A DNA stretch of 64,000 nt from Bryobacteraceae bacterium. Its GTDB lineage: Bacteria; Acidobacteriota; Terriglobia; Bryobacterales; Bryobacteraceae. The notes under the pieces are model-generated. The model ran no database searches, had not been told where the DNA came from, and saw only the letters and a list, made by a program, of their open reading frames with translations. This document shows positions 3,901 through 64,000 of the stretch, piece by piece; the stretch's first letter is position 1; the number at the start of each line of letters is the position of its first letter. The stretch covers positions 973-64,972 of the forward strand of contig JANLPT010000361.1 in assembly GCA_031367405.1 (NCBI GenBank). Direction: 5' to 3'. Made by a program: the position numbers and the translations under genes.

Positions 3901-5251
3901 GGTGCTCGGCTTCGCCAAGATCATTCGCCGCCGCCTGGACGAGCGCATCTTCCCTTTGGTGCCCGAAGACGACAAGCGCATCGCGCAGACCAAACGGCAG
4001 GTGAGCGACAATCTCAACATCGTGGTCAGCGAAGGCGAACGCCTCACCAAGCTGATCGACGACGTGCTCGATCTCGCCAAGATCGAAGCAGGCAAGTTCA
4101 CCTGGAACATGGCACCTTTGTCGGTGGGCGAAGTGGTGGAGCGGGCCATCGCGGCCACTTCCTCACTGTTCGAAACCAGGAAGCTTGATCTCGTCAGGAA
4201 CATCCAACCCGGCCTGCCCATGCTGACCGGCGACGCTGACCGGCTGATGCAAGTGGTGATCAACCTGATCTCGAACGCGGTGAAGTTCACCGAGACCGGC
4301 AGCATCACCTGCTCGGCGCTGCTGCGGCAGGGGCTGGTGGTGGTCAGTGTGAAGGACTCGGGCGTCGGCATTAAGCCGGAGGACCAGCCCAAGGTCTTTG
4401 AGCGCTTCAAACAGGTGGGCGACACGCTGACTGACAAGCCCAAGGGCACTGGTCTTGGCCTGCCGATTTCGAAGGAGATCGTCGAGTATCACGGGGGCCG
4501 CATCTGGGTGGAAAGCGAGATCGGCGTCGGCAGTACTTTTTCCTTCAGCTTGCCGGTTGCTGGCGACAGGACGGTTTCTACCTCCCGTGCTGTCGACATC
4601 GAGGCCCTGATGCGCCAGTTGCGCGACAACATTGTGAAGCACGAGCCGCGGCCGAAGTCCGTGCTGGTGGTGGATGACGACCCGCACATCCGCTCCCTGC
4701 TGCAGCAGGAGTTCACCGAAGCCGGCTATCCAGTCCGCCTCGCCGAAGACGGCCTGCAGGCGCTCGCTCTGATTCGCGAGGAGACGCCGGGCATCGTGAT
4801 TCTTGATGTGATGATGCCGAAGATGAATGGCTTCGACGTAGCGGCGGTGCTGAAGAACGACCCCGCCACGATGGACATCCCGATCATCATTCTGTCGATC
4901 GTCGAGGACCAGGAGCGCGGCTTCCGGTTGGGCGTCGACCGCTACCTCACCAAGCCCATCGACACGGCCTCGCTGTTCCGCGAAGTCGGCACGCTGCTGG
5001 ACCAGGGCAAGTCCAAGAAGAAGGTGATGGTGGTGGATGAAGACGCCTCCACCATCCGCACGCTGACTGAGGTCCTGGAGGCCAGGGGCTATCACGTGAT
5101 GGAGTCCAACGGTGCCGATCTAGTTTCCCGGGCGGTGAGCGCCAAGCCCGATATCATCGTCCTTAGTTCGCTGCTTTCGAGCAATGAAGGGGTCCGGGCG
5201 CTGCGGTTTGAGAAGGGGTTGGAGAACGTTCTGTTTCTGATTTATCCTTAG
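905..5251 (+). CDS. Hybrid sensor histidine kinase: periplasmic beta-propeller/Y_Y_Y sensor, GAF, HisKA, HATPase, REC plus a degenerate short REC
   Basis: 1448 aa. Propeller-type repeats and YRFRVRARNIDG (Y_Y_Y-like), then a TM segment FSYIAYGLFFGLLALAA, a coiled coil and a GAF domain. H-box SHELRTPLTS, G-box GTGLGLPISKEIV, receiver VILDVMMPKMNGFD. The last 77 aa are receiver-like with Ser at the phospho-Asp position. Confidence 0.95.
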   Translation: MIRLFLLFTAVLSAQTLPSVGASEVGMPLIRNYTSDDFGFARGFRSAVQDRRGVMYFAAGQLTEYDGVTWRQLGLPDGRGTNTVAIDGTGKIWIGGVESFGYLEPDATGTMQAISLLKKVPPADRDFGGINRVATTSQGVFFGSAKKLFRWDGQRMKVWKSASRFMEVVEVNGKVYVVQSAAGLQELAGDEWRDLPGGDAYKNDGLNVATVRRYDDRRLLVAVSGKLTLYDGEKSTPFVTQTGDYLAKSELSTFTDLPDGGFCLNTRKGGSALIEHDGRLRRIINQDSGLPAAGILMAFADREGALWLGHRGVTRVELNSAISIISRLNANFSARHNGTLYVTSLLPGRFLSRLVPNRETGLPTLQPIPTTLTGSGIFPLFGFPANQLVIGTAQGVVKVEGERISPVLPDLQGASFGVNLLLASRKFPNRLYVGYFNGLASLRFESGKWIDEGRLPNYDGAVVALGEASDGAVWYSDSTDVVRAEVPSTGLPDAKVERFGAKHGLELGSKDVLPIAGDIFISTSSQDVRRWDPATRTFVPDKRFFLPLKDSRFDFLNEMTNGDLFSWNLSASEQRYGVFERKGPGKYELLEDPLRRLTRLSLRRAETDPDGVMWLNGSDGLFRFDRRVKASGGQGFPVLVRRVTSGADAVVFGGGSGSTAGSSLPYDRNSLRFEFAAPTFGDEKGTRYQYLLEGADREWSAPGNQTEANYSSLPPGTYRFRVRARNIDGLAGEEGAYSFTILPPWYRTNFSYIAYGLFFGLLALAARQRLISRERDKARRENEALEAQAKALEATVADRTKDLSERAAELATVNRITQALTTQLDKDGLIQLVGDQIRDLFQAPIAYVALLDRSTMMLHFPYSHGEEAAQSRPFGEGLTSQIIRTGQPLLINQDLRGSSARLGVKNMGRQAASYLGVPIASGGESIGVVSVQTTEEEGRFTEADQRLLSTIAASIGVAFHNAQLFEEAQKARASAEQADAAKSTFLSTVSHELRTPLTSVLGFAKIIRRRLDERIFPLVPEDDKRIAQTKRQVSDNLNIVVSEGERLTKLIDDVLDLAKIEAGKFTWNMAPLSVGEVVERAIAATSSLFETRKLDLVRNIQPGLPMLTGDADRLMQVVINLISNAVKFTETGSITCSALLRQGLVVVSVKDSGVGIKPEDQPKVFERFKQVGDTLTDKPKGTGLGLPISKEIVEYHGGRIWVESEIGVGSTFSFSLPVAGDRTVSTSRAVDIEALMRQLRDNIVKHEPRPKSVLVVDDDPHIRSLLQQEFTEAGYPVRLAEDGLQALALIREETPGIVILDVMMPKMNGFDVAAVLKNDPATMDIPIIILSIVEDQERGFRLGVDRYLTKPIDTASLFREVGTLLDQGKSKKKVMVVDEDASTIRTLTEVLEARGYHVMESNGADLVSRAVSAKPDIIVLSSLLSSNEGVRALRFEKGLENVLFLIYP

Positions 5252-5276
5252 GTATGGGAACCAATTCCCGCTGCCC

Positions 5277-5308
5277 CAAACGAACTCCGACCGTCAGGGT
5301 ACAGGGAT
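5277..5308 (-). repeat. REP-like element, degenerate half copy (reverse orientation)
   Basis: CAAACGAACTCCGACCGTCAGGGTACAGGGAT compared with the reverse complement of the consensus left arm, CAAACGAACCCCG(A/G)CCGTCAGGGAGGGAT. Confidence 0.6.
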
Positions 5309-5350
5309 CTCAGGGTGATCGTCGAACGGGAATCTGAAGAACAGGACTAA

Positions 5351-5620
5351 CTCATAAACCTCACCCTCGACCTCCCAGAAGAGAAATTAGCGGCGTGGCG
5401 ATCGCAAGCGGAAGCCGAAGGCCTCACCGTTGAGACTTGGCTACAAACCATCGCGGAGGAGCACCTTCGTCCCTTGTCCTCCGACCCCGCCGACCAATCC
5501 ATCTGGGATCGGCTCGCCGCCCTTGCGGCAAGTGTGCCGCCGGAAGCCCTGGAGTCGCAACACAAGGATGGCGCTGCGCAAGTTGACCACTATCTCTATG
5601 GGCATCCCAAGCGGTATTAA
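5351..5620 (+). pseudogene. VapB-like (ribbon-helix-helix type) antitoxin lacking a canonical start codon
   Basis: Open frame after the TAA at 5348: L-I-NLTLDLPEEKLAAWRSQAEAEGLTVETWLQTIAEEHL...YGHPKRY*. There is no ATG/GTG/TTG before codon 42. ATA at 5354 sits 7 nt after AGGA. The stop overlaps the next ATG (TAATG). Confidence 0.5.
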
Positions 5621-5655
5621 TGAACCCGATTTTCGCGGATACATTCCCTAGCTAG
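5620..5655 (+). pseudogene. PIN-domain (VapC-like) toxin, N-terminal 11-codon stub
   Basis: MNPIFADTFPS* matches the M..(I/V)FADT(F/S)Y.. N-terminus typical of one PIN toxin family. It is cut off by the CTAGCTAGCTAG stop block. Confidence 0.5.
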
Positions 5656-5659
5656 CTAG
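5648..5659. repeat. (CTAG)3 palindromic 12-mer giving stop codons in all six frames
   Basis: CTAGCTAGCTAG read directly. TAG at 5649, 5653 and 5657 covers the three plus frames, and the sequence is its own reverse complement. Confidence 0.95.
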
Positions 5660-5745
5660 CCCTCCCCGTGAGCGGTGGGGTGGTCTTTCACCCGCTAACC
5701 CGCTTGGTACGCATGGAGGAGACCAAATCATGCTATCATGCAGTC

Positions 5746-6009
5746 ATGCAAATCGAAATCAAGACGATTGGGTCCAGTGGACAGATTTCGCTCGGCAAGC
5801 AGTACGCGGGTCGCGTCGTCACGGTCGACCAAGTTTCGGACGGCGTTTGGACAATCAAAGCTGCGCAGGTCATTCCGGACGACGAACTCTGGCTCCACAC
5901 CCCGGAAATGCGCGCCAGTCTTGACCGCGCTCTCGAGTGGGCCGCTACCCATCCACCTTCGGAAACTGACCTGACTGCGCTTACGAAGAAAGTACTTCGT
6001 AAGCGATAG
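5746..6009 (+). CDS. AbrB/SpoVT/MazE-family antitoxin
   Basis: MQIEIKTIGSSGQISLGKQYAGRVVTVDQVSDGVWTIKAA... is a swapped-hairpin-type N-terminus. It ends 6 nt before the downstream small ORF. The ATG at 5746 is preferred over the ORF-track start at 5668. Confidence 0.7.
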   Translation: MQIEIKTIGSSGQISLGKQYAGRVVTVDQVSDGVWTIKAAQVIPDDELWLHTPEMRASLDRALEWAATHPPSETDLTALTKKVLRKR

Positions 6010-6015
6010 CGGTCT

Positions 6016-6312
6016 ATGCCCGTCCGGCTCGATTTGAACAATCCCGAGTTTCAGAAACAGTGGTTCTCCTTGGAGAGGGAGGATCGGATTGCCGTGCTGA
6101 ATTGTTGTGTCAAGCTGGCAGGCATGGAATGGAACGCGGTTTACCGGGACAAGGGTCTTCGCTGGGAAGTTGTCCATAGCCGGACCGGTATTGAGCGAGA
6201 ACGACTATATTCAATTCGCCTAAGCCAAAAGGCACGCGCGATCGTCCGCCGGCACGGTGAGTTTCTACAGTTTCTGTCCCTACATGCGGATCACGATTCC
6301 GCATATCGCTAA
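6016..6312 (+). CDS. RelE/ParE-superfamily-like toxin (putative)
   Basis: 98 aa, paired with the antitoxin. The C-terminus ...LYSIRLSQKARAIVRRHGEFLQFLSLHADHDSAYR resembles the RelE/HigB-type YSIR...(R)AI....v.vl.v..H.dY pattern. Confidence 0.5.
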   Translation: MPVRLDLNNPEFQKQWFSLEREDRIAVLNCCVKLAGMEWNAVYRDKGLRWEVVHSRTGIERERLYSIRLSQKARAIVRRHGEFLQFLSLHADHDSAYR

Positions 6313-6346
6313 CGAAAGTGCCTCCGTATCACTCACCAGCCCTGAC

Positions 6347-7855
6347 ATGGCCAACCTGAACCTCAAAACCCTCCTCCGCTCCGGTGCCCTCCCAGCGGTC
6401 ACCGCCCTCGCCGCGTCGCTCGACCTCGCCCTCGAAGACGCCGCAGGCCAGGCGATCCTCGGCACGCCCGGACTCTCGCGCCATCCTATCGTCCATGAGG
6501 ACACGACCCTCGGCTGGGTCAGCGGACTGGTCACTGGACCGTCTGCGCCGGCGGCTGCTCTCGTCACCCTCATCACGCATCTCGCCGCCAAGGAGTCCGA
6601 GCGCCGCGCCCTCGCCGGTGAAGTGCTCCACCTCTATCGGGAAGTCCATCTCATTGAGCAGCTCTCGGAACAGCTAGCAGCGCTGCTCGACTTTGCGGCC
6701 GTCGGACAGTCCGCGCTCGACCAGGCCCGCCGCCTCATCGCCGCGTCGCACGGCGGCGTCCTGGTGATGGACACGGAAGGCGGACCCTTGCGCCCGGTCG
6801 CCGCTTTCGGCCCCGAAGGCGCCCTGCCGGCGGATTCGCCCCTGGTTGCTTCGGCCGTCGAACGCGCGGTCGAACGCGGCATCGCGGAGATCGTCAATAC
6901 GCCCAATGGCTCCGCCATCTGCGCGCCTTTAAGAGCCAAGCAGCGCACCGTCGGCGTCATTTCGCTCGGCAACGATACCGGCGCATCCTATTCGAGCGTC
7001 GACCTCAAGCTGCTGAACACCATCGCGCTCCAGACCGCTGCCGCCATCGAAAACTCGTTTCTCTGCGCGGAGATGGTGGACGCCGTGCGTGACCGCGAAC
7101 AACTCGCCGCGCTGCAAAAAGAGCTCGATACCGCGCGCACCATTCAACACTCACTGGTGCCCCGCATCTTCCCGCCTTTCCCCGACCGCACGGACTTCGA
7201 TATCCACGCCGCGATGCACTCTGCCAAAGCCGTCGGTGGCGACTTCTTCGATTTCTTCTTGATCGACGACGACCGTCTGGGCCTCGTCATCGGCGACGTT
7301 TCCGGCAAAGGCATCCCCGCCGCGCTCTACATGGCCGTCACCCGCACGCAGATCAAGACCACGGCCCTTCAAGGCGTCGCGCCGGCGGAGTGTCTGCTCG
7401 AAGTGAACCGTGTCCTGGTGCGCGAGAAGGTGTCGAGCATGTTCGCGACCTGCTTTTACGGCATCCTCCACCTGCGCTCCGGCGAGTTTCACTTCTGCAA
7501 CGCCGGCCACAATCCGCCCTACCTGCTGCGCGCCTCCGGTGCGGTGGAAGAAGTGCCCATCACCGGCGGGCTCCCGCTGGGGATGTTTGCCAAACTGAAG
7601 TGTACGGCGGGCAGCGCCGCGCTCGCGCCGGGTGACGGACTCTTCCTCTACACCGACGGCGTTCCCGAGGCGGTGAACGCCACCCTAGAGGACTTCACCA
7701 ACGAACGGCTCGTCGCCGGTCTCGAAGGCGCCTCCTCCCTCGCCTCCCGCCACCTCATCGACCGGATCACCGGCAGCCTCCTCACCTTCACCGCCGGAGC
7801 CCCCCAGTCCGACGACATCACCATGCTCACCCTGCGCCTCGGCGCTAGGGGGTAG
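6347..7855 (+). CDS. GAF-domain PP2C/SpoIIE-family serine phosphatase (RsbU-like)
   Basis: Central GAF-like region, then PPM motifs GGDFFDFF, GDVSGKGIPAALYMA, YTDGVPEA and SDDITML. The ATG at 6347 (MANLNLKTLL) is preferred. Confidence 0.85.
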   Translation: MANLNLKTLLRSGALPAVTALAASLDLALEDAAGQAILGTPGLSRHPIVHEDTTLGWVSGLVTGPSAPAAALVTLITHLAAKESERRALAGEVLHLYREVHLIEQLSEQLAALLDFAAVGQSALDQARRLIAASHGGVLVMDTEGGPLRPVAAFGPEGALPADSPLVASAVERAVERGIAEIVNTPNGSAICAPLRAKQRTVGVISLGNDTGASYSSVDLKLLNTIALQTAAAIENSFLCAEMVDAVRDREQLAALQKELDTARTIQHSLVPRIFPPFPDRTDFDIHAAMHSAKAVGGDFFDFFLIDDDRLGLVIGDVSGKGIPAALYMAVTRTQIKTTALQGVAPAECLLEVNRVLVREKVSSMFATCFYGILHLRSGEFHFCNAGHNPPYLLRASGAVEEVPITGGLPLGMFAKLKCTAGSAALAPGDGLFLYTDGVPEAVNATLEDFTNERLVAGLEGASSLASRHLIDRITGSLLTFTAGAPQSDDITMLTLRLGARG

Positions 7856-9140: not shown

Positions 9141-9472
9141 TGTTTCGCTCCTTCCCAGCGGATGCCCAACGAGGCTCGGGCGACTGTGGAGTAGAACTCC
9201 GCCGCGGCACGCTGTCCTAAACCAGTGATTTGAACCAGCCGTTTCGCACGCCCACCCCGTTGGTGCGTCGCTTCGCCCATGCGAGTCGCGACGAAGCCCT
9301 TCGCCTCCAGCCGATCCAAAGTCAGGTAGAGTGCGCCGGAGGAACAGGGGCGGGCGGTGGCCGCCTCAACATCCTCCGCGATGGAAGTTCCATAGGCTCC
9401 ATCGCCCAGCCGTTGGCAAGCGGCCAGCACCAGATATTCAAACTCGCCGATCACATTTCGCGTCCTCACCAT
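9116..9472 (-). CDS. PadR-family transcriptional regulator
   Basis: EFEYLVLAACQRLGDGAYGTSIAEDV....SSGALYLTLDRLEAKGFV is the PadR winged-helix signature. Confidence 0.9.
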   Translation of the reverse strand: MVRTRNVIGEFEYLVLAACQRLGDGAYGTSIAEDVEAATARPCSSGALYLTLDRLEAKGFVATRMGEATHQRGGRAKRLVQITGLGQRAAAEFYSTVARASLGIRWEGAKQCTTCFGV

Positions 9473-9659
9473 AATGCCTACATTGTGCTCTAAATCCGAA
9501 TGGCCGTCGATCCGTTGATCACCCTACATGGCCTTAGCCCGCCCGGCCACTTGGATCCCGACCCATCGGAGCCGTTTGTTGCCTGCGGCGCGAGACGCGA
9601 TCACCGCGTTTCCGGGAAATGACGGGGTCGCGTCACGACACGGCCACTCCTATCACGAG

Positions 9660-11459
9660 TTAACTCAGCTTCTTCGCCACCGTATCCCGCAGCAGGACTG
9701 CCAGCAGGCCATCCGTCGCCGAGGCGGACTTTTCGCCTCCCGATACCAGGACGTCTGGCGTCAAGCGGATGCCTTTTTCGGCTAAGACGGTGAAGATTTG
9801 CAGCATGGAATAGTTTTCTCCCATCGCCTCGACGCCAAGCTTGTAGGCGTCGGCGCGGGCCTGGCCGATGGCCCGGATGGCTTCGGCTTCGTTGCGGCCG
9901 CGGATGGCTACCACTTCGGCTTCTGCCTCGCCGATGCGCTTTTTGGCTAAGGCTTCGCCTTCGGCACGGCGCGATGTGACCAGCGAATCGCCTTGTGCGC
10001 CTTCGACGGCCGCTTTGGCACGCATCTCCGAAACGCGAACGTCCTGCTCGGAATTGACGAGTTCCTTCTGCTTGTCAGCGAGGGCTTTTTGCCGCTCAAG
10101 TTCCTGGCGCGTGCGCTGCGCTTGCTCCTCAATCTGGAACGTCTTGCGTTGCTCCTCGGCCATCTTGCGCGCGGTGAGGGTGTGCATCAGTTCGGGCGGC
10201 GGCGTGATGTCGCCGATCAGGGTGTCGACGCTTTGGACGTCGTATTCCTTGATGGCGTCGGTGATGTGCTGGCGCGCTTCCTGTTGACGCCCGGCGCGGT
10301 TCGAGAGGAAGTCGAGCACGCTGTAATTCTGCGCGCTATTGCGGAAGTAGTTGCCGACGATCGGCTCCAGCACCTGGTTCACCAGATTGCGTACGCTGCC
10401 GACTCGCGAGATCACCCAAGGCGCTTTGGTCGCGCCGATGTTGATGATCTGCGAGACGTCCAAAGTGAAGTTGAAGCCGTCTTGCGAGCGAACGGTGATC
10501 GTCGAGAGCTTTTCATCGAGCTTATGCGCTTCTGATCGCGCGTTCGCCCAGTTGAGGACGATGTTGGTGGTCGGTACAGCTTCCACCTTCATGATGCGCG
10601 AGTTCAGCGGATGCTTGCCGGGGTAAAGCGGCTCGTCCCACACGCCTTTGCCGCCTTTGCGGACGATGTTGCCGTGCGTGAATTGCTCGCCAGAAATGTC
10701 TTTCATGTCGTCGCCGACAAAGCTGACGACGACGCCCACGTAGCCGATGGGCACTTCGTAAAGGTCGGATTGCTCGATTTCGGCGAACCAGGGGTTGATG
10801 TTGTAGTTGCCGGCCAGAATGATTTGCTCCTGCAGGCCGCGGCAGCCGCCCGCGCGGATAAAGGCGGCGGGATTTTGGAAGTCCTCGTGACCCTCGGCGC
10901 GCTTGGAGGCCATTTGACCCTCGGGCATGGGCGCGCCATCCATCACCGTGACGATGCCGACTTTGTCGGAGCCGATTTTGGTCATGGCGATGTTGGGGAC
11001 GACGCGGAACAGCACCGGGTTGATGCGATAGAAACCGGCGGTGAGGATGGCGGATTGACGCCCCTTTTGGCCACCGGAGCGCAAGAACTTTTCGGCGGAT
11101 TGGTAGTCGTCGCAAGCGACCGGCTGGCACAGCACCCGGTCAACCGGCATGGGCGCGCCGTCGTTGGCGATCACCAGGCCAATGCAGCCGGGCTCGATGA
11201 TCGTCATCGGAAACTTCTCCACTTTGTACTGCCAAGGCCAGTAGAACGGGTGTACGCCGGGGGCGAGCGTACCGGCTTGATAACCGGCTTCGCCTTCGAG
11301 CGAAACGACGCGGCCATCGGGTAGTTTACGGCCACCGAAAGTGAACCGCTTCACAATCACGCCGACTTGATCCTCGCGGATGATCACCAAGCCGCCGAGG
11401 CGTACGGCGAGGACGAACAGCACGATGACGGCGGCTAAACCAATCAGGAACGGGTACAT
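9660..11459 (-). CDS. SPFH/Band-7 (flotillin-like) membrane protein with a triplicated N-terminal module
   Basis: N-terminal TM helix, three repeats of about 65 aa, an SPFH core (ITVRSQDGFNFTLDVSQIINI...) and a Glu/Ala-rich flotillin-type C-terminus (EAEAEVVAIRGRNEAEAIRAIGQARADAYK). Confidence 0.85.
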   Translation of the reverse strand: MYPFLIGLAAVIVLFVLAVRLGGLVIIREDQVGVIVKRFTFGGRKLPDGRVVSLEGEAGYQAGTLAPGVHPFYWPWQYKVEKFPMTIIEPGCIGLVIANDGAPMPVDRVLCQPVACDDYQSAEKFLRSGGQKGRQSAILTAGFYRINPVLFRVVPNIAMTKIGSDKVGIVTVMDGAPMPEGQMASKRAEGHEDFQNPAAFIRAGGCRGLQEQIILAGNYNINPWFAEIEQSDLYEVPIGYVGVVVSFVGDDMKDISGEQFTHGNIVRKGGKGVWDEPLYPGKHPLNSRIMKVEAVPTTNIVLNWANARSEAHKLDEKLSTITVRSQDGFNFTLDVSQIINIGATKAPWVISRVGSVRNLVNQVLEPIVGNYFRNSAQNYSVLDFLSNRAGRQQEARQHITDAIKEYDVQSVDTLIGDITPPPELMHTLTARKMAEEQRKTFQIEEQAQRTRQELERQKALADKQKELVNSEQDVRVSEMRAKAAVEGAQGDSLVTSRRAEGEALAKKRIGEAEAEVVAIRGRNEAEAIRAIGQARADAYKLGVEAMGENYSMLQIFTVLAEKGIRLTPDVLVSGGEKSASATDGLLAVLLRDTVAKKLS

Positions 11460-11717
11460 GGAAACAACCTTTCCCGGTACGAACTCGACGACAACGAGTG
11501 CGCGAAACGTGAACCGGAGAGAATAATCGGACCGGACTCTTCGCGCGGGAAGGAATTCATCCTAACAGCGAACGATGTGAAGAGTCAGGCGCACCACACA
11601 AGAATACGGCAATTCTGGAGACAAGTTCGGAAAACCGGCGGGAAATCGCGTTCACCCTACAGAAAATGAGCTCGATCGCCGATCCCTCTAGGTAAATCAC
11701 CTGAGGAGGATGGCAGG

Positions 11718-54070: not shown

Positions 54071-57028
54071 CTAGAAAGTAATCCGGGCCGCAATTTGTAA
54101 GATACGCGGATCGGCCGTGGCATTGGCCGCCTGAAAGTTAGTCGTCGGCGTAAATACGCGCGTCGTAGCGTTGTAGTTATAGGGCACGAGTTGGAGCGCC
54201 GTGAAGTTCGTATGGTTAAAGCTGTTGAACGCCTCACCCATAATCCTCAGCTTCACTCTTTCGCCCGCCAGTGGAATGTCCTTGGATACGCGCATATCGA
54301 TCGAGAAGAATCCCGGGCCTTCGATCGTGTTCCGCCCAAAGCCGGGCGAACGATCGCTAAAGCGATTGCCGTCGTTATTCAAATCGACATTCGAGCGTGC
54401 CGAGAAGTAACGGCCCGATTGCGAAGTGGAGATGCCCGAAACCTGCCAACCGCCCAGGACGTGCTTCATCACCGGGTTCGCATTTTTGAAGTAATTCAAA
54501 TCCCAAACGCCCGAAAAGACGAAGCGGAAAGGAACGTGGGCATCGCCTAACGCCCGGTCGGAGTTAGGCAGCAGCGTATCGAAGGCCACCTTGGCATCGT
54601 CGCCGCCGTTGTTCGGCACCACCGAGGTTTGGTCAGGCAAGGTATCGATCACTTTCGACCACGTGTAACTCGCCAGGAACTGGAAGTTCTGCGCATAGCG
54701 CTTGGTGATTTGGATAAAGCCCGCATGATAGATGGAGTCGCCGCCCGAATCGTCCAGCGTAACGCGGCCGAAGTTCGGATTGGGGCGCGTGTTCGGCCTA
54801 CGCCCGACTTGTACCGGGCCGTTGCCGTTGGTAAAAGTAGCCGTCGTGTACTGCAGCGGGAAATGGTTGATGTCGCGGGCGCGGGTGAGGTGTTCGCCCC
54901 GGACGCCGAGGTAGCCGAATGTGATCGCCGTGTCGCGGCTCAATTGCAATTCATAGTTAAGATTAAATTGATGGCTAAGCGGCTGCACATAGTCCGGAGC
55001 GACGACATAGATATCGGGCGTACGCAGCAGCGCGGGCGGCGCGGCCAGGATGGCGGGGTAGCGCGGAATCAACGCGGCCTGCGCCGGGATGCCCCCGTTC
55101 AACGAGTAAGTCTGCACTTGGATGCCATTCTGCGAATGCGCCGTCCCCAATAAGATGGAGGCCGTGCGGCCGTAGAACATGCCGTAGCCGCCACGCACTA
55201 CTTGTTTGCCCTCTTTGTCGACCCGGTAAGCAAACCCGAACCGGCCCGCCAGGTTATTGGTGTCGCGGTTGAATCGAGACGTGTCGAGCTTCGCTGCGGC
55301 GAGACCCGGATCAGGATTCTTCACCGGGTTTTGCGCGTAAGTGAACAAGTCGTAGCGTCCGCCGTAAGTCAAGGTCAGGCGGTCGGTTAAGCGCCATTGA
55401 TCCTGGGCGAAGAAAGCGACTTCATTAGCATTGGGATAAGTGGTGGCCCCGTTCGTGCCGGCACCGGCGAAGCCTTGCGTAAATGAGGAGGGGCGGCGAT
55501 TCGCAAAATCGATTAAGGTATCGAAGATAAACGCGCCGCTAAAGTTGCCGGGGAACAGGTTGGCAATCCGCTCAAAGTTGAAGTCCCCGCCCACCTTGTA
55601 ACTGTGCTTGCCGCGCGCCAGCGATACCGCGTTAATGATCTGATACTTCTTCGAGTTGGTATAACGGGGCGAAAAGCTATTGCGCCCGATCGAGAGCAGC
55701 GTGGTGCCGCTTTGACGGATTTGCGCTTCGGGGTCAGCTGAATTCGCCTCGCCCGGCGCGTCGTCGCGCAGGTAGATGAAGCGCGAATCCCACACGGTAG
55801 TAGCGCCAAAGATCTTCGTATAATTCACTGCCAGATTGTCAGTAGTGTTCTTCGAGTTGCCGGTATGCTCGGCCGCGGATTGATTGCCGCCGTTCTCGAA
55901 GTTACGCCCCGTGAAACGGTGCAAATTATAACGGACACTCAGCGTCTGCGTAGAGGAGAGGTTGTAATCGATCTTGGCCGTATGAATGTTATTCACCAAG
56001 CCGGTGGTGTAGGGATTCTGGTACTTACGCAGGTCCTGCGCGGTTTGTTGTGAGACAGCGTCGGCCGGGATGGTGACGTTGGGCGGGAAGAAAACCGCAT
56101 TGGGCAAAGTGTTGCGTTGGCCATCGTAATTGTAGAAGAAGAAAAGCTTATTTTTCTTGATGGGCCCACCGATGTTGCCGCCAAACTGATTAAAGTGATA
56201 TGGCTGGCGGACCCGCCCGGCGGCGTTATTAAAGAAAGTATTCGCATTCATCGCCTTGTCGCGAAAGAACCAAAAGGCCGTGCCGTGCAAAGCGTTCGTA
56301 CCGGACTTGGTTACCACATTGATGACGCCACCGCCCGCGCGCCCGATTTCCGGAGCGTAACCGTTCGTATTTACCTGAAATTCCTGCACGGCATCCTGCG
56401 AGAAGGTGTAAGGATTGCGGGTGCCGGCGCGGCCAGACGATTGGCCAAAAAACAAGTTATTCGAGTCGCCGCCGTCGATCAGGAGGGAGTTAGCCGTGCC
56501 GCGTTGCCCGCCGAAGCTGAGGTCGCCGCCCCGTGGATCGCGCACGACTCCGGGAGTGAGCACCGTGAAATCGAGAAAGTTACGGCCGTTGATGGGCAAG
56601 TCACGCACCGCGCGTTCATTCACTGCCGTGGCGGTATTGGCCCGCGTCGTTTCCACCAGTGGCAAGTCGGTATTGACATCGACCGAGGCCGTGGATGAAG
56701 TAACTTGTAATTTCAAATCCAAATTGGCTTGCGAGCCTACCACAAGAGGCAGATTATCCAGCTTCAGCGTCGTGAAGCCCGCTTGCTGCACTTCCACGTT
56801 GTAAGTGCCGACGGGTAGCCGCACAAAAGTGAAGAAGCCGGCATCGGTGGTGGTGAGCGAGCGGACTAGCCCGGTCGCCACGTTGGAGGCGGTGACCTTG
56901 GCCCCTGTGACGACAGCGCCACTAGGGTCAGTTACAGTACCGGAGAGAGAAGCGCTTCCGATTTCGGACTGCGCGAAAGCAAGCGAGGAGAGAGCCAGGA
57001 AAAGGGTAAGAACCCGGGAAAGCAGCAT
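54071..57028 (-). CDS. TonB-dependent receptor with N-terminal CarboxypepD_reg-like domain
   Basis: Signal peptide, SGTVTDPSGAVVTGAKVTASN..., plug and a 22-strand-type barrel, terminal ...ARITF. Confidence 0.92.
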   Translation of the reverse strand: MLLSRVLTLFLALSSLAFAQSEIGSASLSGTVTDPSGAVVTGAKVTASNVATGLVRSLTTTDAGFFTFVRLPVGTYNVEVQQAGFTTLKLDNLPLVVGSQANLDLKLQVTSSTASVDVNTDLPLVETTRANTATAVNERAVRDLPINGRNFLDFTVLTPGVVRDPRGGDLSFGGQRGTANSLLIDGGDSNNLFFGQSSGRAGTRNPYTFSQDAVQEFQVNTNGYAPEIGRAGGGVINVVTKSGTNALHGTAFWFFRDKAMNANTFFNNAAGRVRQPYHFNQFGGNIGGPIKKNKLFFFYNYDGQRNTLPNAVFFPPNVTIPADAVSQQTAQDLRKYQNPYTTGLVNNIHTAKIDYNLSSTQTLSVRYNLHRFTGRNFENGGNQSAAEHTGNSKNTTDNLAVNYTKIFGATTVWDSRFIYLRDDAPGEANSADPEAQIRQSGTTLLSIGRNSFSPRYTNSKKYQIINAVSLARGKHSYKVGGDFNFERIANLFPGNFSGAFIFDTLIDFANRRPSSFTQGFAGAGTNGATTYPNANEVAFFAQDQWRLTDRLTLTYGGRYDLFTYAQNPVKNPDPGLAAAKLDTSRFNRDTNNLAGRFGFAYRVDKEGKQVVRGGYGMFYGRTASILLGTAHSQNGIQVQTYSLNGGIPAQAALIPRYPAILAAPPALLRTPDIYVVAPDYVQPLSHQFNLNYELQLSRDTAITFGYLGVRGEHLTRARDINHFPLQYTTATFTNGNGPVQVGRRPNTRPNPNFGRVTLDDSGGDSIYHAGFIQITKRYAQNFQFLASYTWSKVIDTLPDQTSVVPNNGGDDAKVAFDTLLPNSDRALGDAHVPFRFVFSGVWDLNYFKNANPVMKHVLGGWQVSGISTSQSGRYFSARSNVDLNNDGNRFSDRSPGFGRNTIEGPGFFSIDMRVSKDIPLAGERVKLRIMGEAFNSFNHTNFTALQLVPYNYNATTRVFTPTTNFQAANATADPRILQIAARITF

Positions 57029-59837: not shown

Positions 59838-61123
59838 GGCCAACCAGCGTTCGCTACGCCGTCTTGGGCGTCGCCACCGCCAACGCCTTCATCCTCTATC
59901 TAGACCGCGTTTGCATGGGCGCGGTGGTCCAATCGGTGAGCTTTCAGCGAGAGCTCGGGCTGGGCAAGGACCGTATTGGCGACGTACTCGCGGTGTTTTT
60001 CTTCGCCTATGCGATCGGGCAAACGCCGGCCGGTTACCTGGCCGACCGTTTCGGGCCCCGGCGCATGTTAGTCACTTACATTTTGCTATGGTCAATTTGT
60101 ACCGCGCTAACTGGCTTTGTCGGCGGCATGGTTGGCCTGATCGTCGTGCGCTCCGCTTGCGGACTCGCCGAAGCCGGTGCCTATCCCGCCAGCAGTCTTT
60201 TAGTCACTCGCTGGTTCCCTTTCGCCCAACGCGGACGCGCCAATAGCGTCGTCGCTTTCGGGGGCCGCACCGGTAACTCACTCGCGCTTTGGCTCACCGC
60301 CGGGGCAATCGCCGCCCTCGGCTCCTGGCGGCCCGTGTTGTGGATCTATGGTGCCATCGGCCTTGCCCTCGCCCTGGCCACCCTGATCGTCTTTCGCGAC
60401 GACCCTGCCACGCACCCGTGGGCCAACGAAGCCGAACGCGAGTTGATCCGCCGCGATGCCCCGCCCGTCAAAGCGCTCCGCCGCAAGTCACCCTGGCTCG
60501 CCCTGGTCCGCCACCGCGGACTTTGGTTCTTAAACCTCGGCACCATCGGCATGAACATCGGCTGGGCCTTCCTGATCACGTGGCTGCCCACTTACTTGCA
60601 GGAAGTGCGCGGGCTTGACCCGATCACCGCCAGCCGTTACGTCTCCATTGCCTTGGCCTGTAGCCTGGGCGGCGTGCTGTTCGGTGGCTGGTGGTGCGAC
60701 GTGCTCACCCGCCGCTTCGGACGCACCTGGGGCCGGCGTTTGCCGTTCCTGACGGGCAGTTCTGTGGCGATGGCCGCCTACTTACTCTGTCCCCTGCTGG
60801 GCACCCCCATTGCGGTGGCTGTAGCTTGTGGCATCGTCGCTTTCGCCACCGATAGCATGGTACCCGCAGTGTGGGCGCTGGCCCAGGATATTGGCGGGAC
60901 ACACGTCGCGTCGACCTTGGCGTGGAGTAACATGTGGGGCAACTTCGGCGCTTCCGCCATCGCAAAATTGATCCCTTTTATCCTCGCTACTTCACTGCAC
61001 TTTACTGACTGGCGCGAGATCTTCTGGTTGTGCGCCGGCGGCTTCGCCCTGCTCGGCGTTGCCGCCATGCTGGTGGATAGCGCGAAGCCACTTACCGATT
61101 CTCATCCCGCAGCTCCGCGCTAA
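59834..61123 (+). CDS. MFS transporter (anion:cation symporter-like), GTG start
   Basis: 429 aa with 12 TM helices, YLADRFGPRR and GLAEAGAYPA motifs. GTGA overlap with the dipeptidase stop. Confidence 0.85.
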   Translation: MRPTSVRYAVLGVATANAFILYLDRVCMGAVVQSVSFQRELGLGKDRIGDVLAVFFFAYAIGQTPAGYLADRFGPRRMLVTYILLWSICTALTGFVGGMVGLIVVRSACGLAEAGAYPASSLLVTRWFPFAQRGRANSVVAFGGRTGNSLALWLTAGAIAALGSWRPVLWIYGAIGLALALATLIVFRDDPATHPWANEAERELIRRDAPPVKALRRKSPWLALVRHRGLWFLNLGTIGMNIGWAFLITWLPTYLQEVRGLDPITASRYVSIALACSLGGVLFGGWWCDVLTRRFGRTWGRRLPFLTGSSVAMAAYLLCPLLGTPIAVAVACGIVAFATDSMVPAVWALAQDIGGTHVASTLAWSNMWGNFGASAIAKLIPFILATSLHFTDWREIFWLCAGGFALLGVAAMLVDSAKPLTDSHPAAPR

Positions 61124-61143
61124 ACTCAAAGCTACTGCCATCT

Positions 61144-61938
61144 ATGCCTTGGATGAAATTTGAAATTTCCGCAATCTGGACGGTGATGGTGGTGGCATTC
61201 CTCGTCCTGGCAATCTGGGAAGGCGCACGGCCCCGGCGGCAGTTATCGATGCCCGCCGAGCGGCGTTGGGGACGTAGTGGTTTGTTACTGGTGGTGGGCG
61301 GCGTCTTTCAGGCGGTTGCCTTCCGGATCAGCCCGGTTGTCTTCGCCGCCACCGTCATTCACCGCCCGTGGGGTCTTCTGAACCGGCCCGATCTTCCGTT
61401 CGCCGTCCAGTTTGCCGCCGCCATTCTGCTGCTCGATCTCGTCCACTACCTCGGCCACCGGCTCTTTCATTCCGTCGGCGTTCTGTGGCGCATCCATGAA
61501 GTGCATCACTCCGATGTGGATTATGACGTCTCGACCGCTGCCCGCTTTCATCCGCTCGAAATTATCGGGGCCAAAGCCTTCTACTTAGGCGGCATCCTAC
61601 TCTTGGCACCGCCCCTGTCCGCCGTCTTCGCCGCGGAGTTACATACGGCTTTGCTGAATGTATTTGCCCACGCCAACGTCGCTTTGCCAACCCCCGTCGA
61701 GCGCTGGTTGCGCTGGGCGATCATTACACCGGACCTTCATCGCATTCACCATTCTGAAGACGTGGCCGACCAGAATCGTAACTTCGGCCAGACCTTTATT
61801 TGGTGGGATCGTCTCTTCGGAACTTATCTGCCCCGCTCAATTTCCGGCAACGAAGGCGTGGCCACTGGAGTTCGCGGCGTTTCTGGTGACGCGGGCGTCG
61901 TCGCCCTAATCACCCGGCCATTTCAGCGCCGTTCATAA
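61144..61938 (+). CDS. Fatty-acid hydroxylase / sterol desaturase superfamily membrane protein
   Basis: Histidine boxes HYLGHRLFH, HEVHH and HRIHHS. Confidence 0.88.
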   Translation: MPWMKFEISAIWTVMVVAFLVLAIWEGARPRRQLSMPAERRWGRSGLLLVVGGVFQAVAFRISPVVFAATVIHRPWGLLNRPDLPFAVQFAAAILLLDLVHYLGHRLFHSVGVLWRIHEVHHSDVDYDVSTAARFHPLEIIGAKAFYLGGILLLAPPLSAVFAAELHTALLNVFAHANVALPTPVERWLRWAIITPDLHRIHHSEDVADQNRNFGQTFIWWDRLFGTYLPRSISGNEGVATGVRGVSGDAGVVALITRPFQRRS

Positions 61939-61941
61939 AAA

Positions 61942-61972
61942 ACGGGCCGCTGGCCCGAAGGCAGCGGCCCGT
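61942..61972 (-). terminator. Rho-independent terminator for the minus-strand mini-gene (also between convergent genes)
   Basis: CGGGCCGCTGGCC-CGAA-GGCAGCGGCCCG is a GC-rich stem. On the minus strand it is followed by TTTTT (plus-strand AAAAA at 61937-61941). Confidence 0.8.
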
Positions 61973-61989
61973 CGAATATTGGCCACTTA

Positions 61990-62148
61990 CTACTTCTTGC
62001 CGCGCCGGCTACGGAGCACCAGCATGCCCCCTGAAAGCAGCGCTAAAGCCGCCGCACCGGTTGACGCGTCAATCTCGGGAACCGTACCCGCGAAAGCTGC
62101 TCCGCCCATGCCAAAAAACATCATTAACAAACCAACTGATTTCTTCAT
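61990..62148 (-). CDS. 52-aa mini-protein: signal peptide plus VPEID/PEP-CTERM-like sorting tail
   Basis: My translation: MKKSVGLLMMFFGMGGAAFAGTVPEIDASTGAAALALLSGGMLVLRSRRGKK*. Paralogous to 62225-62389, with mostly synonymous differences between them. Confidence 0.8.
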   Translation of the reverse strand: MKKSVGLLMMFFGMGGAAFAGTVPEIDASTGAAALALLSGGMLVLRSRRGKK

Positions 62149-62224
62149 GTCAAGAACGTACCACACGCCTCATCGACAATCCATACCCCCAACCTGGGGA
62201 AAGGAGTGGTGTAGATAGGGGTAC

Positions 62225-62389
62225 TTACTTCTGGTTACGACGGCTTCGAAGCACCAACATGCCGCCCGATAAAAGCGCGAGCGCCGACGCGCCCGTCGAC
62301 GCGTCAATTTCCGGTGCCGGAAACGGGGTGCCGAACGCCGACCCAGCCACGCCCATCAAAACCATTGCCAAACCAAGGAATTTCGTCAT
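62225..62389 (-). CDS. 54-aa mini-protein: signal peptide plus (A)PEID/PEP-CTERM-like sorting tail
   Basis: My translation: MTKFLGLAMVLMGVAGSAFGTPFPAPEIDASTGASALALLSGGMLVLRSRRNQK*. Confidence 0.8.
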   Translation of the reverse strand: MTKFLGLAMVLMGVAGSAFGTPFPAPEIDASTGASALALLSGGMLVLRSRRNQK

Positions 62390-62495
62390 GCGAGAAAAGT
62401 AGCATGGGCTCGATTGCCCCTGCCATGCCCTTCAGCGCGAGAAAATACCATAACCAATAGACCTTTAGTAATGCCTGGCAACGACCCGGCCGTGC

Positions 62496-63377
62496 TCAAT
62501 TCATCAGCCAGATTCCGGCGGGCACCAACACTGCTGCGGCTAAGGTCCACACGGTGATCGCCTCGCCTTGAAAAACGGCGCTCAGCACCACGGCGAACAC
62601 CGGCACCAAATTCAAGTAAGCTCCGGCGCGTGCGGGGCCCAGGGCGTACACCGCATCCATGTACCACAGGAACGCGAGCGACGTGCCCATCACCCCGAGA
62701 AACGCCAGCGCCAGCCACACCTTCAAAGGCCATACGCCAGCCGGTGCGGGGGGCGACAACGCCGCATCCAAAACAAAGATCAACGCCGCGCCCAGCAACG
62801 TGGAATAGCCCGTGGCGGCCACCGGTGAAGAGCCCGCAATCGCCGGCCGGCCCGCCAAAGTATACACGCTCCAGCCAATCACGCAGCCGCAGATTACCAG
62901 GTCCCCCAAGCCCACACCGCCGGAGGCGAAAGCGGCAAAGTTCCCCTGCGTCAGCGCGAGCGCCGCTCCCGTGAACGCGACCAACACCGCGAGAATCCGG
63001 CGGCCGGTGAGTCGCTCGCCCATCAATAGCCCCGCGAGCAGCAACATTGACGGATTGGTTGCCACGATGAGCGAAGCCCGGCCGGCGGGGATAAATCGCA
63101 GGCCGTAAAAGAAGCAGACGTTGTAGAGGACAATCCCGAAAAGCGCCATCACGGCCATCGGCAACCAGACGCGTCCACGCGGCACGGGTTCCCGCCGTAC
63201 CAGCAGCAGTACTAAGAGTCCGAGCGCGCCGAAGAAAAAGCGCCCGCTCGCCGCGTGCAAAGGCGCGATCCCCTGTTGCGCCACGATGCGCCCGGCCAGC
63301 CACGAGCCGGCCCAGATCACCGACGCGGCAATTACTTTGAAAGCGGGAGACACCAGTGGGAACCTCCAGTGTCGCAT
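62496..63377 (-). CDS. EamA-family (DMT superfamily) transporter
   Basis: 293 aa, 10 TM helices, two EamA repeats. Confidence 0.85.
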   Translation of the reverse strand: MRHWRFPLVSPAFKVIAASVIWAGSWLAGRIVAQQGIAPLHAASGRFFFGALGLLVLLLVRREPVPRGRVWLPMAVMALFGIVLYNVCFFYGLRFIPAGRASLIVATNPSMLLLAGLLMGERLTGRRILAVLVAFTGAALALTQGNFAAFASGGVGLGDLVICGCVIGWSVYTLAGRPAIAGSSPVAATGYSTLLGAALIFVLDAALSPPAPAGVWPLKVWLALAFLGVMGTSLAFLWYMDAVYALGPARAGAYLNLVPVFAVVLSAVFQGEAITVWTLAAAVLVPAGIWLMN

Positions 63378-63413
63378 CCCGGCTGGCGGGGTTACTGTAT
63401 TACAGGAGACTGC

Positions 63414-64000
63414 ATGGCGAACATCAAGATCAGCGACAAACTCGGCGTCACCCTTTTGACCACCCCTTCCGGCCCCGGCTCAGGGATTTCCAAATACTTC
63501 ACCGGCAACACGGCGGCCTTTGTGGCTTCGGCGCAATTGGCAACCGCTCTCAACAAGCCCGTGGGCTCTTTGACCGCCGCGCCCCTGGGCCTCGGCATGA
63601 CCTTCGCCAGCGACGGAACTTTCGGTACCACCGGCGTGGAATGGCAGTTTTCAGCGGGTGCCCAGGTCACCGTCCAGGCGACGCAAGCCGCGAACCAAGT
63701 GCCTGGCGACGACGTCTTTCAAAACCCCATTACCGTCGAAGCCGGAAAGACACTGGTGGCGGCCACCTTCACGCCCTCACTCTCCGTGGGCTTGTCGGAA
63801 GGCATTGGCAACCTGCAGTTCGGCTTCACTGCGGGGGGCTCCGTCGCCTTTCGCGCCGGACGTCTCATTGACCTTGCCGGCGGTGCCGGACCCAAGCTCG
63901 GCGAGGCCCTGCAATCGTTGCTCTCCAGCGCCATCGTCCCGGCCAATGTGCTCGACCTGGCCACCATGCTGGAAGGCGACCTCGGATCGGTGAGCGGCGC
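63414..64000 (+). CDS. Hypothetical protein, N-terminal part (runs off the window)
   Basis: ATG at 63414 lies 4 nt after AGGAGA. The frame is open for 195 codons to the window end (MANIKISDKLGVTLLTTPSGPGSG...). It is absent from the ORF track because no stop is reached. No family recognised. Confidence 0.65.
   Translation, partial: MANIKISDKLGVTLLTTPSGPGSGISKYFTGNTAAFVASAQLATALNKPVGSLTAAPLGLGMTFASDGTFGTTGVEWQFSAGAQVTVQATQAANQVPGDDVFQNPITVEAGKTLVAATFTPSLSVGLSEGIGNLQFGFTAGGSVAFRAGRLIDLAGGAGPKLGEALQSLLSSAIVPANVLDLATMLEGDLGSVSG

Follow-up and report, generated by a model that had tools for sequence, protein, structure and literature searches.

What can two adjacent genes do when their products consist of almost nothing but a signal peptide and a sorting tail, and which enzyme would process those products if none is encoded nearby? 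These questions are raised by a 64,000-nucleotide (nt) stretch of DNA from a Bryobacteraceae bacterium (GenBank assembly GCA_031367405.1, contig JANLPT010000361.1, positions 973 to 64,972 of the forward strand), referred to here as the window. Its minus strand carries two tandem genes, gene A (62225..62389) and gene B (61990..62148), each encoding a mini VPEID-CTERM protein. We consider it probable that both products are substrates dedicated to the exosortase XrtE, and that the xrtE gene was split off from them by a rearrangement and most likely lies elsewhere in the genome.

Both genes were read from a listing of open reading frames (ORFs) of at least 20 amino acids (aa) on the minus strand of 61700-62700, and both begin with ATG. 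Gene A encodes the 54-aa protein MTKFLGLAMVLMGVAGSAFGTPFPAPEIDASTGASALALLSGGMLVLRSRRNQK and gene B the 52-aa protein MKKSVGLLMMFFGMGGAAFAGTVPEIDASTGAAALALLSGGMLVLRSRRGKK. The mechanical ORF of gene B is six codons longer, reaching a GTG at 62166; its homologues keep the M-K-K start. In gene A, a predicted signal peptide (aa 1-20, 62330-62389) ends in SAFG before a Thr and is followed by a variable core of five residues, TPFPA (62315-62329, from the predicted signal-peptidase site to PEID), the PEID motif (62303-62314), and a hydrophobic helix with the tail RSRRNQK (62228-62302), closed by the stop codon at 62225-62227. In gene B, the signal peptide (aa 1-20, 62089-62148) is predicted to end in AAFA before a Gly, and the three-residue core GTV (62080-62088) leads into PEID (62068-62079) and then the helix and tail RSRRGKK (61993-62067; stop codon 61990-61992). 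Both N-termini show a Lys-containing n-region, about 15 hydrophobic residues and A-F-A or A-F-G at positions -3 to -1, on which the rule-based call of a Sec signal peptide is made. An original prediction, made from the letters of this DNA, had given exactly these two reading frames and translations, and its description of a Sec-type signal with an AFA/AFG-like site, a tripartite (V/A)PEID, hydrophobic helix and RSRR tail, and a tiny cargo can be read directly in both sequences.

The stretch from PEID to RSRR, 26 codons in each gene, allows the two to be compared. They differ at 17 of these codons, 16 synonymously and one by a Ser/Ala exchange, a count that reproduces the one made earlier. At the nucleotide level 19 of 78 positions differ, 15 being third and four first codon positions. 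When 19 random substitutions were placed at the observed transition fraction in 200,000 runs, simulated neutral change produced a mean of 11.5 nonsynonymous codons and a minimum of 4, compared with the one observed (P < 5e-6). This synonymous excess indicates that the minus-strand frame is coding, that purifying selection on it is strong, and that the duplication is old. The earlier proposal holds: A and B are genuine paralogues, and purifying selection acts on them. Near-identical copies of the locus were found in two metagenome contigs, L027 (98.8% identical to the window over 60727-64000) and L028 (99.6% identical), and within genes A and B they show a single difference, a synonymous CGG to CGA change at 62005 in gene B. 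Both contigs were reached through the adjacent hydroxylase protein, whereas exact look-ups with the proteins of A, B and the EamA gene had no match.

The opposite view, that these are chance ORFs in non-coding sequence, could appeal to their length below 60 aa, to the lack of a Shine-Dalgarno sequence and of a promoter consensus, and to the gene caller, which called neither mini gene in L027 (1213-1769). The excess of third-position differences between the paralogues, scores above a curated hidden Markov model (HMM) cutoff, and the existence of hundreds of equally long homologous ORFs effectively rule it out, and no Rfam family covers the region or comes near a gathering score. We give this explanation next to no credence.

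Scored against the NCBIfam model TIGR04161 ("VPEID-CTERM sorting domain-containing protein"), the product of gene A reaches 35.3 bits (E = 8.8e-9) and that of gene B 34 bits (E = 2.1e-8), both over the curated cutoff of 33. Among 5.8 billion proteins, a word-indexed search picked out 59 homologues, which are 48-78 aa long; 58 of them have a precomputed assignment to PF27847, whose label is VPEID-CTERM. The VPEID-CTERM identity, which had been proposed originally, is thereby borne out. A local Pfam scan of both peptides gave no VPEID-CTERM match, and the canonical PEP-CTERM model (TIGR02595) was not among the matches for either protein even at E ≤ 10. A role as LPXTG sortase substrates was considered and rejected: neither protein contains an LPXTG motif, and the scores of A and B are 14.3 and 9.1 bits against TIGR01167 (cutoff 15.9) and 13.2 and 7 bits against PF00746 (cutoff 20). 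The weak LPXTG, MYXO-CTERM and similar matches are all sub-threshold and arise from the helix and basic tail only. Genes A and B belong to the VPEID-CTERM mini-protein family, and every feature that defines the family at sequence level is present in them.

A product without appreciable cargo might be expected to be an oddity, and the family was surveyed with a profile search (HMMER, 1.84 billion cluster representatives). This gave 2,369 matches at E ≤ 1e-3 and 220 at E ≤ 1e-10. Almost all matches are 50-60 aa long, and the best 150 of the 2,369 align over the whole unit of ~53 residues. Longer matches carry the mini unit at their C-terminal end and look like over-called starts or two minis read through. 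PEID is present in 179 of 198 unique members, and in 184 of the 198 its Pro lies 27-29 residues from the C-terminus (29 aa in both A and B). Of the 190 members to which a cleavage site can be assigned, 178 have Ala at -1 and 143 have it at -3. The core between the cleavage site and PE measures 3-10 residues, with a mode of 5; A, V, G, T and P abound in it, and it is otherwise unconserved. Across 51 aligned members, the P, E and I of PEID and R48 are invariant, and D, S49, R50 and R51 are at least 90% conserved. The survey indicates that a signal peptide joined to a sorting tail, with nothing else, is the norm of this family and not an oddity of the window locus. This rule had escaped the original prediction. 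Genes A and B, with their cores TPFPA and GTV, are typical members.

Such minis are often skipped by gene callers. One relative, L009, holds seven tandem copies at 9390-10734, and in L029 an uncalled third mini (10166-10315) starts 4 nt past the second. A 105-aa protein with two matched stretches (P0180) looks like two minis called as one protein.

Relatives were gathered by context look-ups and by a one-genome-per-species scan with a 9-sequence mini alignment, the best scan match being 72% identical. This comparison covers 23 distinct mini-bearing loci, window included, almost all of them from Bryobacterales or Solibacter-type Acidobacteriota, with one from Burkholderiales and one from Rhodobacterales. 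In 17 of the 23, between one and seven tandem minis directly adjoin xrtE. The product of this gene in the relatives is a protein of 500-570 aa in which Exosortase_EpsH and Rce1-like domains are fused, and two representatives score 199 and 186 bits (cutoff 150) against TIGR04162, the model for "exosortase E/protease, VPEID-CTERM system", a name that both JGI and NCBI use for the relatives' proteins. The association of VPEID-CTERM with exosortase E, likewise part of the original prediction, thus holds in the relatives. With the XrtE protein P0060 as query, minis were seen to follow xrtE in four of five metagenome loci, and in the fifth the contig ends ~210 nt past xrtE. Orthologues of the gene A type, with the core TPFP(V/A)PEID, adjoin xrtE in L030.

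Ten aligned XrtE proteins share the invariant stretches ECSGLEG, NAxRIA and GFHSQAGW; within these lie the Cys, Arg and His suspected to form the exosortase triad (Haft preprint 10.1101/2023.06.07.544157). They also share the invariant CPBP set EELAFR, FGxxHG and HxxxN, corresponding to the EExxxR, FxxxH and HxxxN motifs known from CPBP proteases (PMC11980579). The C-terminal domain is matched by TIGR03008 and weakly by the MrtJ and Mrt_core models. Two gene arrangements recur: xrtE, then minis, then a convergent FA_hydroxylase gene (type 1), as against minis followed by xrtE with no hydroxylase nearby (type 2; L001, L002, L016, L019, L021 and L025). Most minis in the other loci are preceded by a GGAGG Shine-Dalgarno sequence at the proper distance. 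A crude regular-expression search found no larger protein with a VPEID- or PEP-CTERM tail in the window or the neighbouring loci checked.

A few observations concern the surroundings of xrtE in particular relatives. In L002, a 200-aa protein directly upstream of the mini (9234-9836) has a VPDGG-type C-terminal tail, not VPEID. The same contig carries, besides its XrtE/mini pair, a second, stand-alone exosortase (2779-7116). This one is flanked by a HisKA_7TM histidine kinase, a sigma-54 response regulator and a large protein with TPRs, neighbours that resemble a PEP-CTERM regulatory set. Close relatives of the window share, a few genes ahead of xrtE, genes for a sigma-54-dependent activator, an extracytoplasmic function (ECF) sigma factor and its zf-HC2 anti-sigma factor (L029 4168-5487, L031 4709-6052, L032 6222-7478).

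Runs of one to seven copies, each with a short hypervariable core between two conserved processing signals, would also fit precursors of secreted peptides. Signal peptidase and XrtE would then excise the core of 3-10 residues and free it as an oligopeptide such as a signal, and the tandem, diversified copies would resemble the precursor arrays of pheromones or of ribosomally synthesized and post-translationally modified peptides (RiPPs). However, the cores consist mainly of A, V, G, T and P, without any conserved or charged feature, and so look more like a spacer than a ligand, and no receptor or transporter gene is conserved nearby. Relatives that have been studied by experiment (sortase, ArtA, rhombosortase and myxosortase) moreover leave their products anchored (PMC11980579). 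We regard a released peptide as quite unlikely.

Besides xrtE, a second gene recurs beside the minis. In the window, a gene of the fatty-acid hydroxylase family (61144..61938, plus strand, 264 aa; Pfam FA_hydroxylase, 1.1e-30) lies convergent with genes A and B. Among NCBIfam models it matches OlsE only, with 89.8 bits, far under that model's cutoff of 475; OlsE is the model for an ornithine-lipid hydroxylase. A homologue, at 42-70% amino-acid identity, adjoins minis in 18 distinct loci (window, L008-L015, L018, L020, L022-L024, L029, L030, L035 and L037). In most loci the hydroxylase gene converges on the minis, but in L011 and L012 it points the same way as the mini and lies ~37 nt from it. 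It stands beside the minis in all six loci without xrtE nearby (L011, L012, L022, L023, L024 and the window), and therefore, within Bryobacterales, minis and hydroxylase stay side by side at least as steadily as minis and xrtE do. Apart from xrtE and the hydroxylase, no neighbour of the minis is conserved across more than a few loci. These results suggest that the hydroxylase may be a third component of the module, a conserved member that the original prediction had passed over. Its likeness to OlsE hints at a connection with lipids, and proves nothing.

The adjacency to xrtE, which is the usual context of VPEID-CTERM genes and not part of the HMM definition, is absent from the window. A tblastn search with an XrtE protein found no exosortase or CPBP gene in the 64 kb, and neither a profile HMM built from ten XrtE proteins nor phmmer with an XrtA-like protein found an exosortase among the six-frame ORFs of at least 70 aa, as the original prediction had already stated for the window. 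The copy in L027 extends 7.9 kb past the window end, and no exosortase is present there either, so that ~72 kb is covered in all.

Comparison with relatives shows where the gene would be expected. On one side of the minis the window has the convergent FA_hydroxylase, MFS, M19 dipeptidase and OEP genes, and upstream of them an EamA/DMT transporter gene (62496..63377, minus strand, 293 aa; Pfam EamA, 1.5e-42), which is mere context and does not belong to the system. The closest syntenic relative, the 59.7-kb JGI contig L029, shares with the window the order NusB, MFS, ABC, ORF, JAB, holin, OEP, M19, MFS, (RraA), FA_hydroxylase, minis, most of the shared genes being 76-88% identical in amino-acid sequence and the hydroxylase 70%. 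The exact place of EamA in the window is taken in L029 by a 528-aa xrtE, and the arrangement is the same in L008 and L030. In these three loci, where xrtE precedes the minis, no EamA homologue is present. Synteny with the relatives ends at the upstream edge of gene A.

Between gene A and EamA lies a spacer of 106 nt (62390..62495, minus strand), with the rearrangement breakpoint at its distal end and no Shine-Dalgarno sequence. About 90 nt of it can be aligned with the L030 sequence that separates xrtE from the first mini (L030 3622-3710), and the two share the blocks GTACTA...GTATTTT.TCGCGC and GA.CCCATGCTAyTTTTCTyGC-ATG. This homology places the breakpoint immediately past the stop codon of the ancestral xrtE and indicates that the minis kept their own upstream region. 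The spacer is probably the regulatory and leader region of the minis. Over 61901-62520 (620 nt), four of the five differences between L027 and the window fall within it. The leader shared by gene A and the first mini of L030 is perhaps an unusual translation-initiation or regulatory element of first minis of the TPFPxPEID type. A rearrangement, which the original prediction did not consider, explains the missing exosortase.

The complementary half of the module was found as well. Two metagenome contigs, L031 and L038, carry it (10001-11560 in each): the xrtE is intact, its left flank is of the L029 type (sigma-54 activator, zf-HC2, ECF sigma, tRNA-synt_1c and DUF1080, with 79-95% amino-acid identity to the L029 side), and no minis lie downstream, where a convergent Zn-dependent alcohol dehydrogenase gene follows. 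The encoded XrtE has all catalytic motifs and scores above the TIGR04162 cutoff. The metagenome sample of L031 also yielded L028, the 99.6% copy of the window locus, and L038, reached through P0332, a member of the 90% cluster of the L031 XrtE, is an equivalent contig with the same end point from a sister sample of the same project. A second cluster member, P0336, led to no contig. The shared end point of L031 and L038 suggests that the assembly broke at this position. A third contig, L032 (10001-11557), also has an intact xrtE with the ancestral left flank and no minis, next to a different, unrelated convergent gene. The L031-type half could not be joined physically to the window, and its xrtE is a candidate for the displaced gene; we think it likely that xrtE survives elsewhere in the source genome.

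The same observations could mean that the lineage lost xrtE altogether and that the peptides keep a role independent of it, either as one- or two-helix membrane peptides acting with the adjacent hydroxylase or as substrates of another exosortase. This reading can point to the ~72 kb around the genes in which no xrtE is found, to the six of 23 loci that have no xrtE within reach and all have the hydroxylase next door, and to the co-directional pairs of L011 and L012. However, PEID, helix and RSRR are kept in both paralogues across saturating synonymous divergence, as continued recognition by a sortase predicts, and the sample that yielded a near-identical copy of the locus also contains an intact, mini-less xrtE. 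A two-helix hairpin is further disfavoured by the family-wide Ala at -3 and -1, which argues for cleavage of the signal. The six type 2 loci, in which no hydroxylase is nearby, also count against this reading. We consider orphaned minis unlikely.

A mechanism for minis serving a displaced XrtE can be outlined from established knowledge of Sec signal peptides and from the sortase, archaeosortase and rhombosortase paradigm. The mini precursor would be exported by Sec and cut by signal peptidase I after AFG or AFA. The remaining peptide of ~32-34 residues would be anchored by its C-terminal helix in the inner membrane, N-terminus outside and RSRR in the cytoplasm. XrtE, an exosortase cysteine-protease domain fused to a CPBP/Rce1-like glutamic intramembrane protease, would then recognise PEID and the helix, cleave at or near PEID and, by analogy with sortase, ArtA and rhombosortase, transfer the short N-terminal piece (GTVPE- or TPFPAPE-like) to an acceptor, and its CPBP domain would perhaps clear the helix remnant. 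The original prediction had suggested, as possible roles, a sortase substrate mimic or regulator, a precursor of a tiny anchored peptide, or a minimal acceptor. On the genomic side, a rearrangement in this lineage cut the ancestral module of xrtE, minis and convergent hydroxylase right after the xrtE stop codon, and the minis remained with their own upstream region and the hydroxylase.

Several points weigh against this account. In addition to the lack of an exosortase or CPBP gene in the window and in the further 7.9 kb of L027, no physical link between L031 and the window was found, a metagenome scan with the L031 XrtE giving only relatives of 48-51% identity. No Shine-Dalgarno sequence is recognisable before gene A or gene B, and no sigma-70 consensus was found upstream of the minis. 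In the paper library that was searched, no paper mentions VPEID-CTERM, XrtE (as an exosortase), TIGR04161, TIGR04162 or PF27847, and the pairing of XrtE with the minis as enzyme and substrate is drawn from co-occurrence and curated models, not from experiment. Whether an exosortase acts as a one-step transpeptidase is also still an open matter (Haft preprint 10.1101/2023.06.07.544157).

A bolder version of the XrtE account would treat the minis as ribosomally made peptide donors instead of cargo proteins. Signal peptidase and XrtE would carve out a peptide of ~5-9 residues, XrtE would transfer it to a membrane lipid or polysaccharide, and the OlsE-like hydroxylase would make or modify the acceptor or the product. 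We offer this as speculation that is more likely wrong than right by a wide measure. If true, it would amount to an undescribed decoration of the cell envelope by small lipopeptides or glycopeptides, abundant in soil Acidobacteria, and the minis would be the smallest possible substrate with which to find an exosortase attachment target.

Transcription of the minis is predicted to end at an intrinsic terminator (61937..61971, minus strand) with a GC-rich stem, a UUCG loop and a run of six U. It lies 3' of gene B at the 51-nt gap between this gene and the convergent hydroxylase gene, and the 71-nt segment that contains it folds at -33.2 kcal/mol (z = -3.58; none of 200 shuffles was as stable), in agreement with the strong terminator of the original prediction. 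The spacer between A and B (62149..62224, minus strand, 76 nt) has no significant structure (fold z = -0.07 against shuffled sequence). A terminator-like site at 62278-62295 was discarded as a chance match, being inside the gene A coding sequence in a region with 2 hits compared with 1.6 in shuffles. The activator near xrtE in L029, L031 and L032 prompted a search for a sigma-54 promoter before the minis, and no consistent GG-N10-GC match was obtained. Farther away, 54071-57028 on the minus strand of the window encodes an outer-membrane beta-barrel protein of 985 aa. It has a CarboxypepD_reg domain at its N-terminus and resembles a TonB-dependent receptor. Its gene sits between the JAB and holin-like genes, which are adjacent in L029, and reflects either an insertion in the window or a deletion in L029.

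The analysis identifies two small genes of a kind that ORF-length filters and gene callers miss, in a family that already has curated models. The survey adds that this mini-substrate family is very large in soil Acidobacteria, with arrays of up to seven copies, and that the hydroxylase is tied to the minis in one of the two architectures and stays when xrtE separates. This modest new lead gives a concrete hint, open to experiment, of a lipid as the possible acceptor. Wider value lies in the chemistry of exosortases (cleavage site, transpeptidase activity or not, acceptor): mature fragments of ~5-9 residues would be ideal for identifying the product by mass spectrometry.

Among known sorting systems, archaeosortase A with PGF-CTERM and rhombosortase with GlyGly-CTERM offer a mechanistic analogy, the removal of a helix coupled to a lipid-containing anchor. 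They belong to another domain of life or to an unrelated enzyme family, and their substrates are large (S-layer glycoprotein, VesB). The JDVT-CTERM/MrtJ system likewise has a gene neighbourhood of a dedicated sorting enzyme, there a CPBP glutamic intramembrane protease, and its target; it differs from the window system, which has practically no cargo. Cleavage by MrtX, the enzyme of the MYXO-CTERM system, has been shown experimentally (PMC11980579). JDVT-CTERM and MYXO-CTERM both need an invariant, lipid-modified Cys, whereas the minis of the window contain no Cys, and the myxosortases MrtJ and MrtX, unlike XrtE, have no fused exosortase domain.

Closer is PEP-CTERM/XrtA (EpsH), which likewise combines a tripartite C-terminal signal, with a Pro-Glu signature abutting the helix, and a deeply membrane-embedded Cys/Arg/His exosortase, often with a CPBP partner. 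That system serves many targets per genome, usually larger and Ser/Thr-rich, and is linked to exopolysaccharide (EPS) loci and PrsK/PrsR regulation. The targets considered here, by contrast, are minis of ~53 aa with essentially no cargo.

The VPEID-CTERM/XrtE system was first defined, in TIGRFAMs, mainly on Alphaproteobacteria, whereas the window member and most of the relatives found here are Acidobacteriota (Bryobacterales). The window shares with it the same PEID, Ala/Leu/Gly-rich helix and RSRR tail at the C-terminus, the same build of signal peptide, 3-10 residues and tail, and, with the relatives, the tandem copies. It differs in having no xrtE within ~72 kb, with EamA in the ancestral place of that gene, and in carrying a conserved hydroxylase neighbour. 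The finding is largely what the curated models already predict, and the separation of xrtE from its minis is the only unusual feature.

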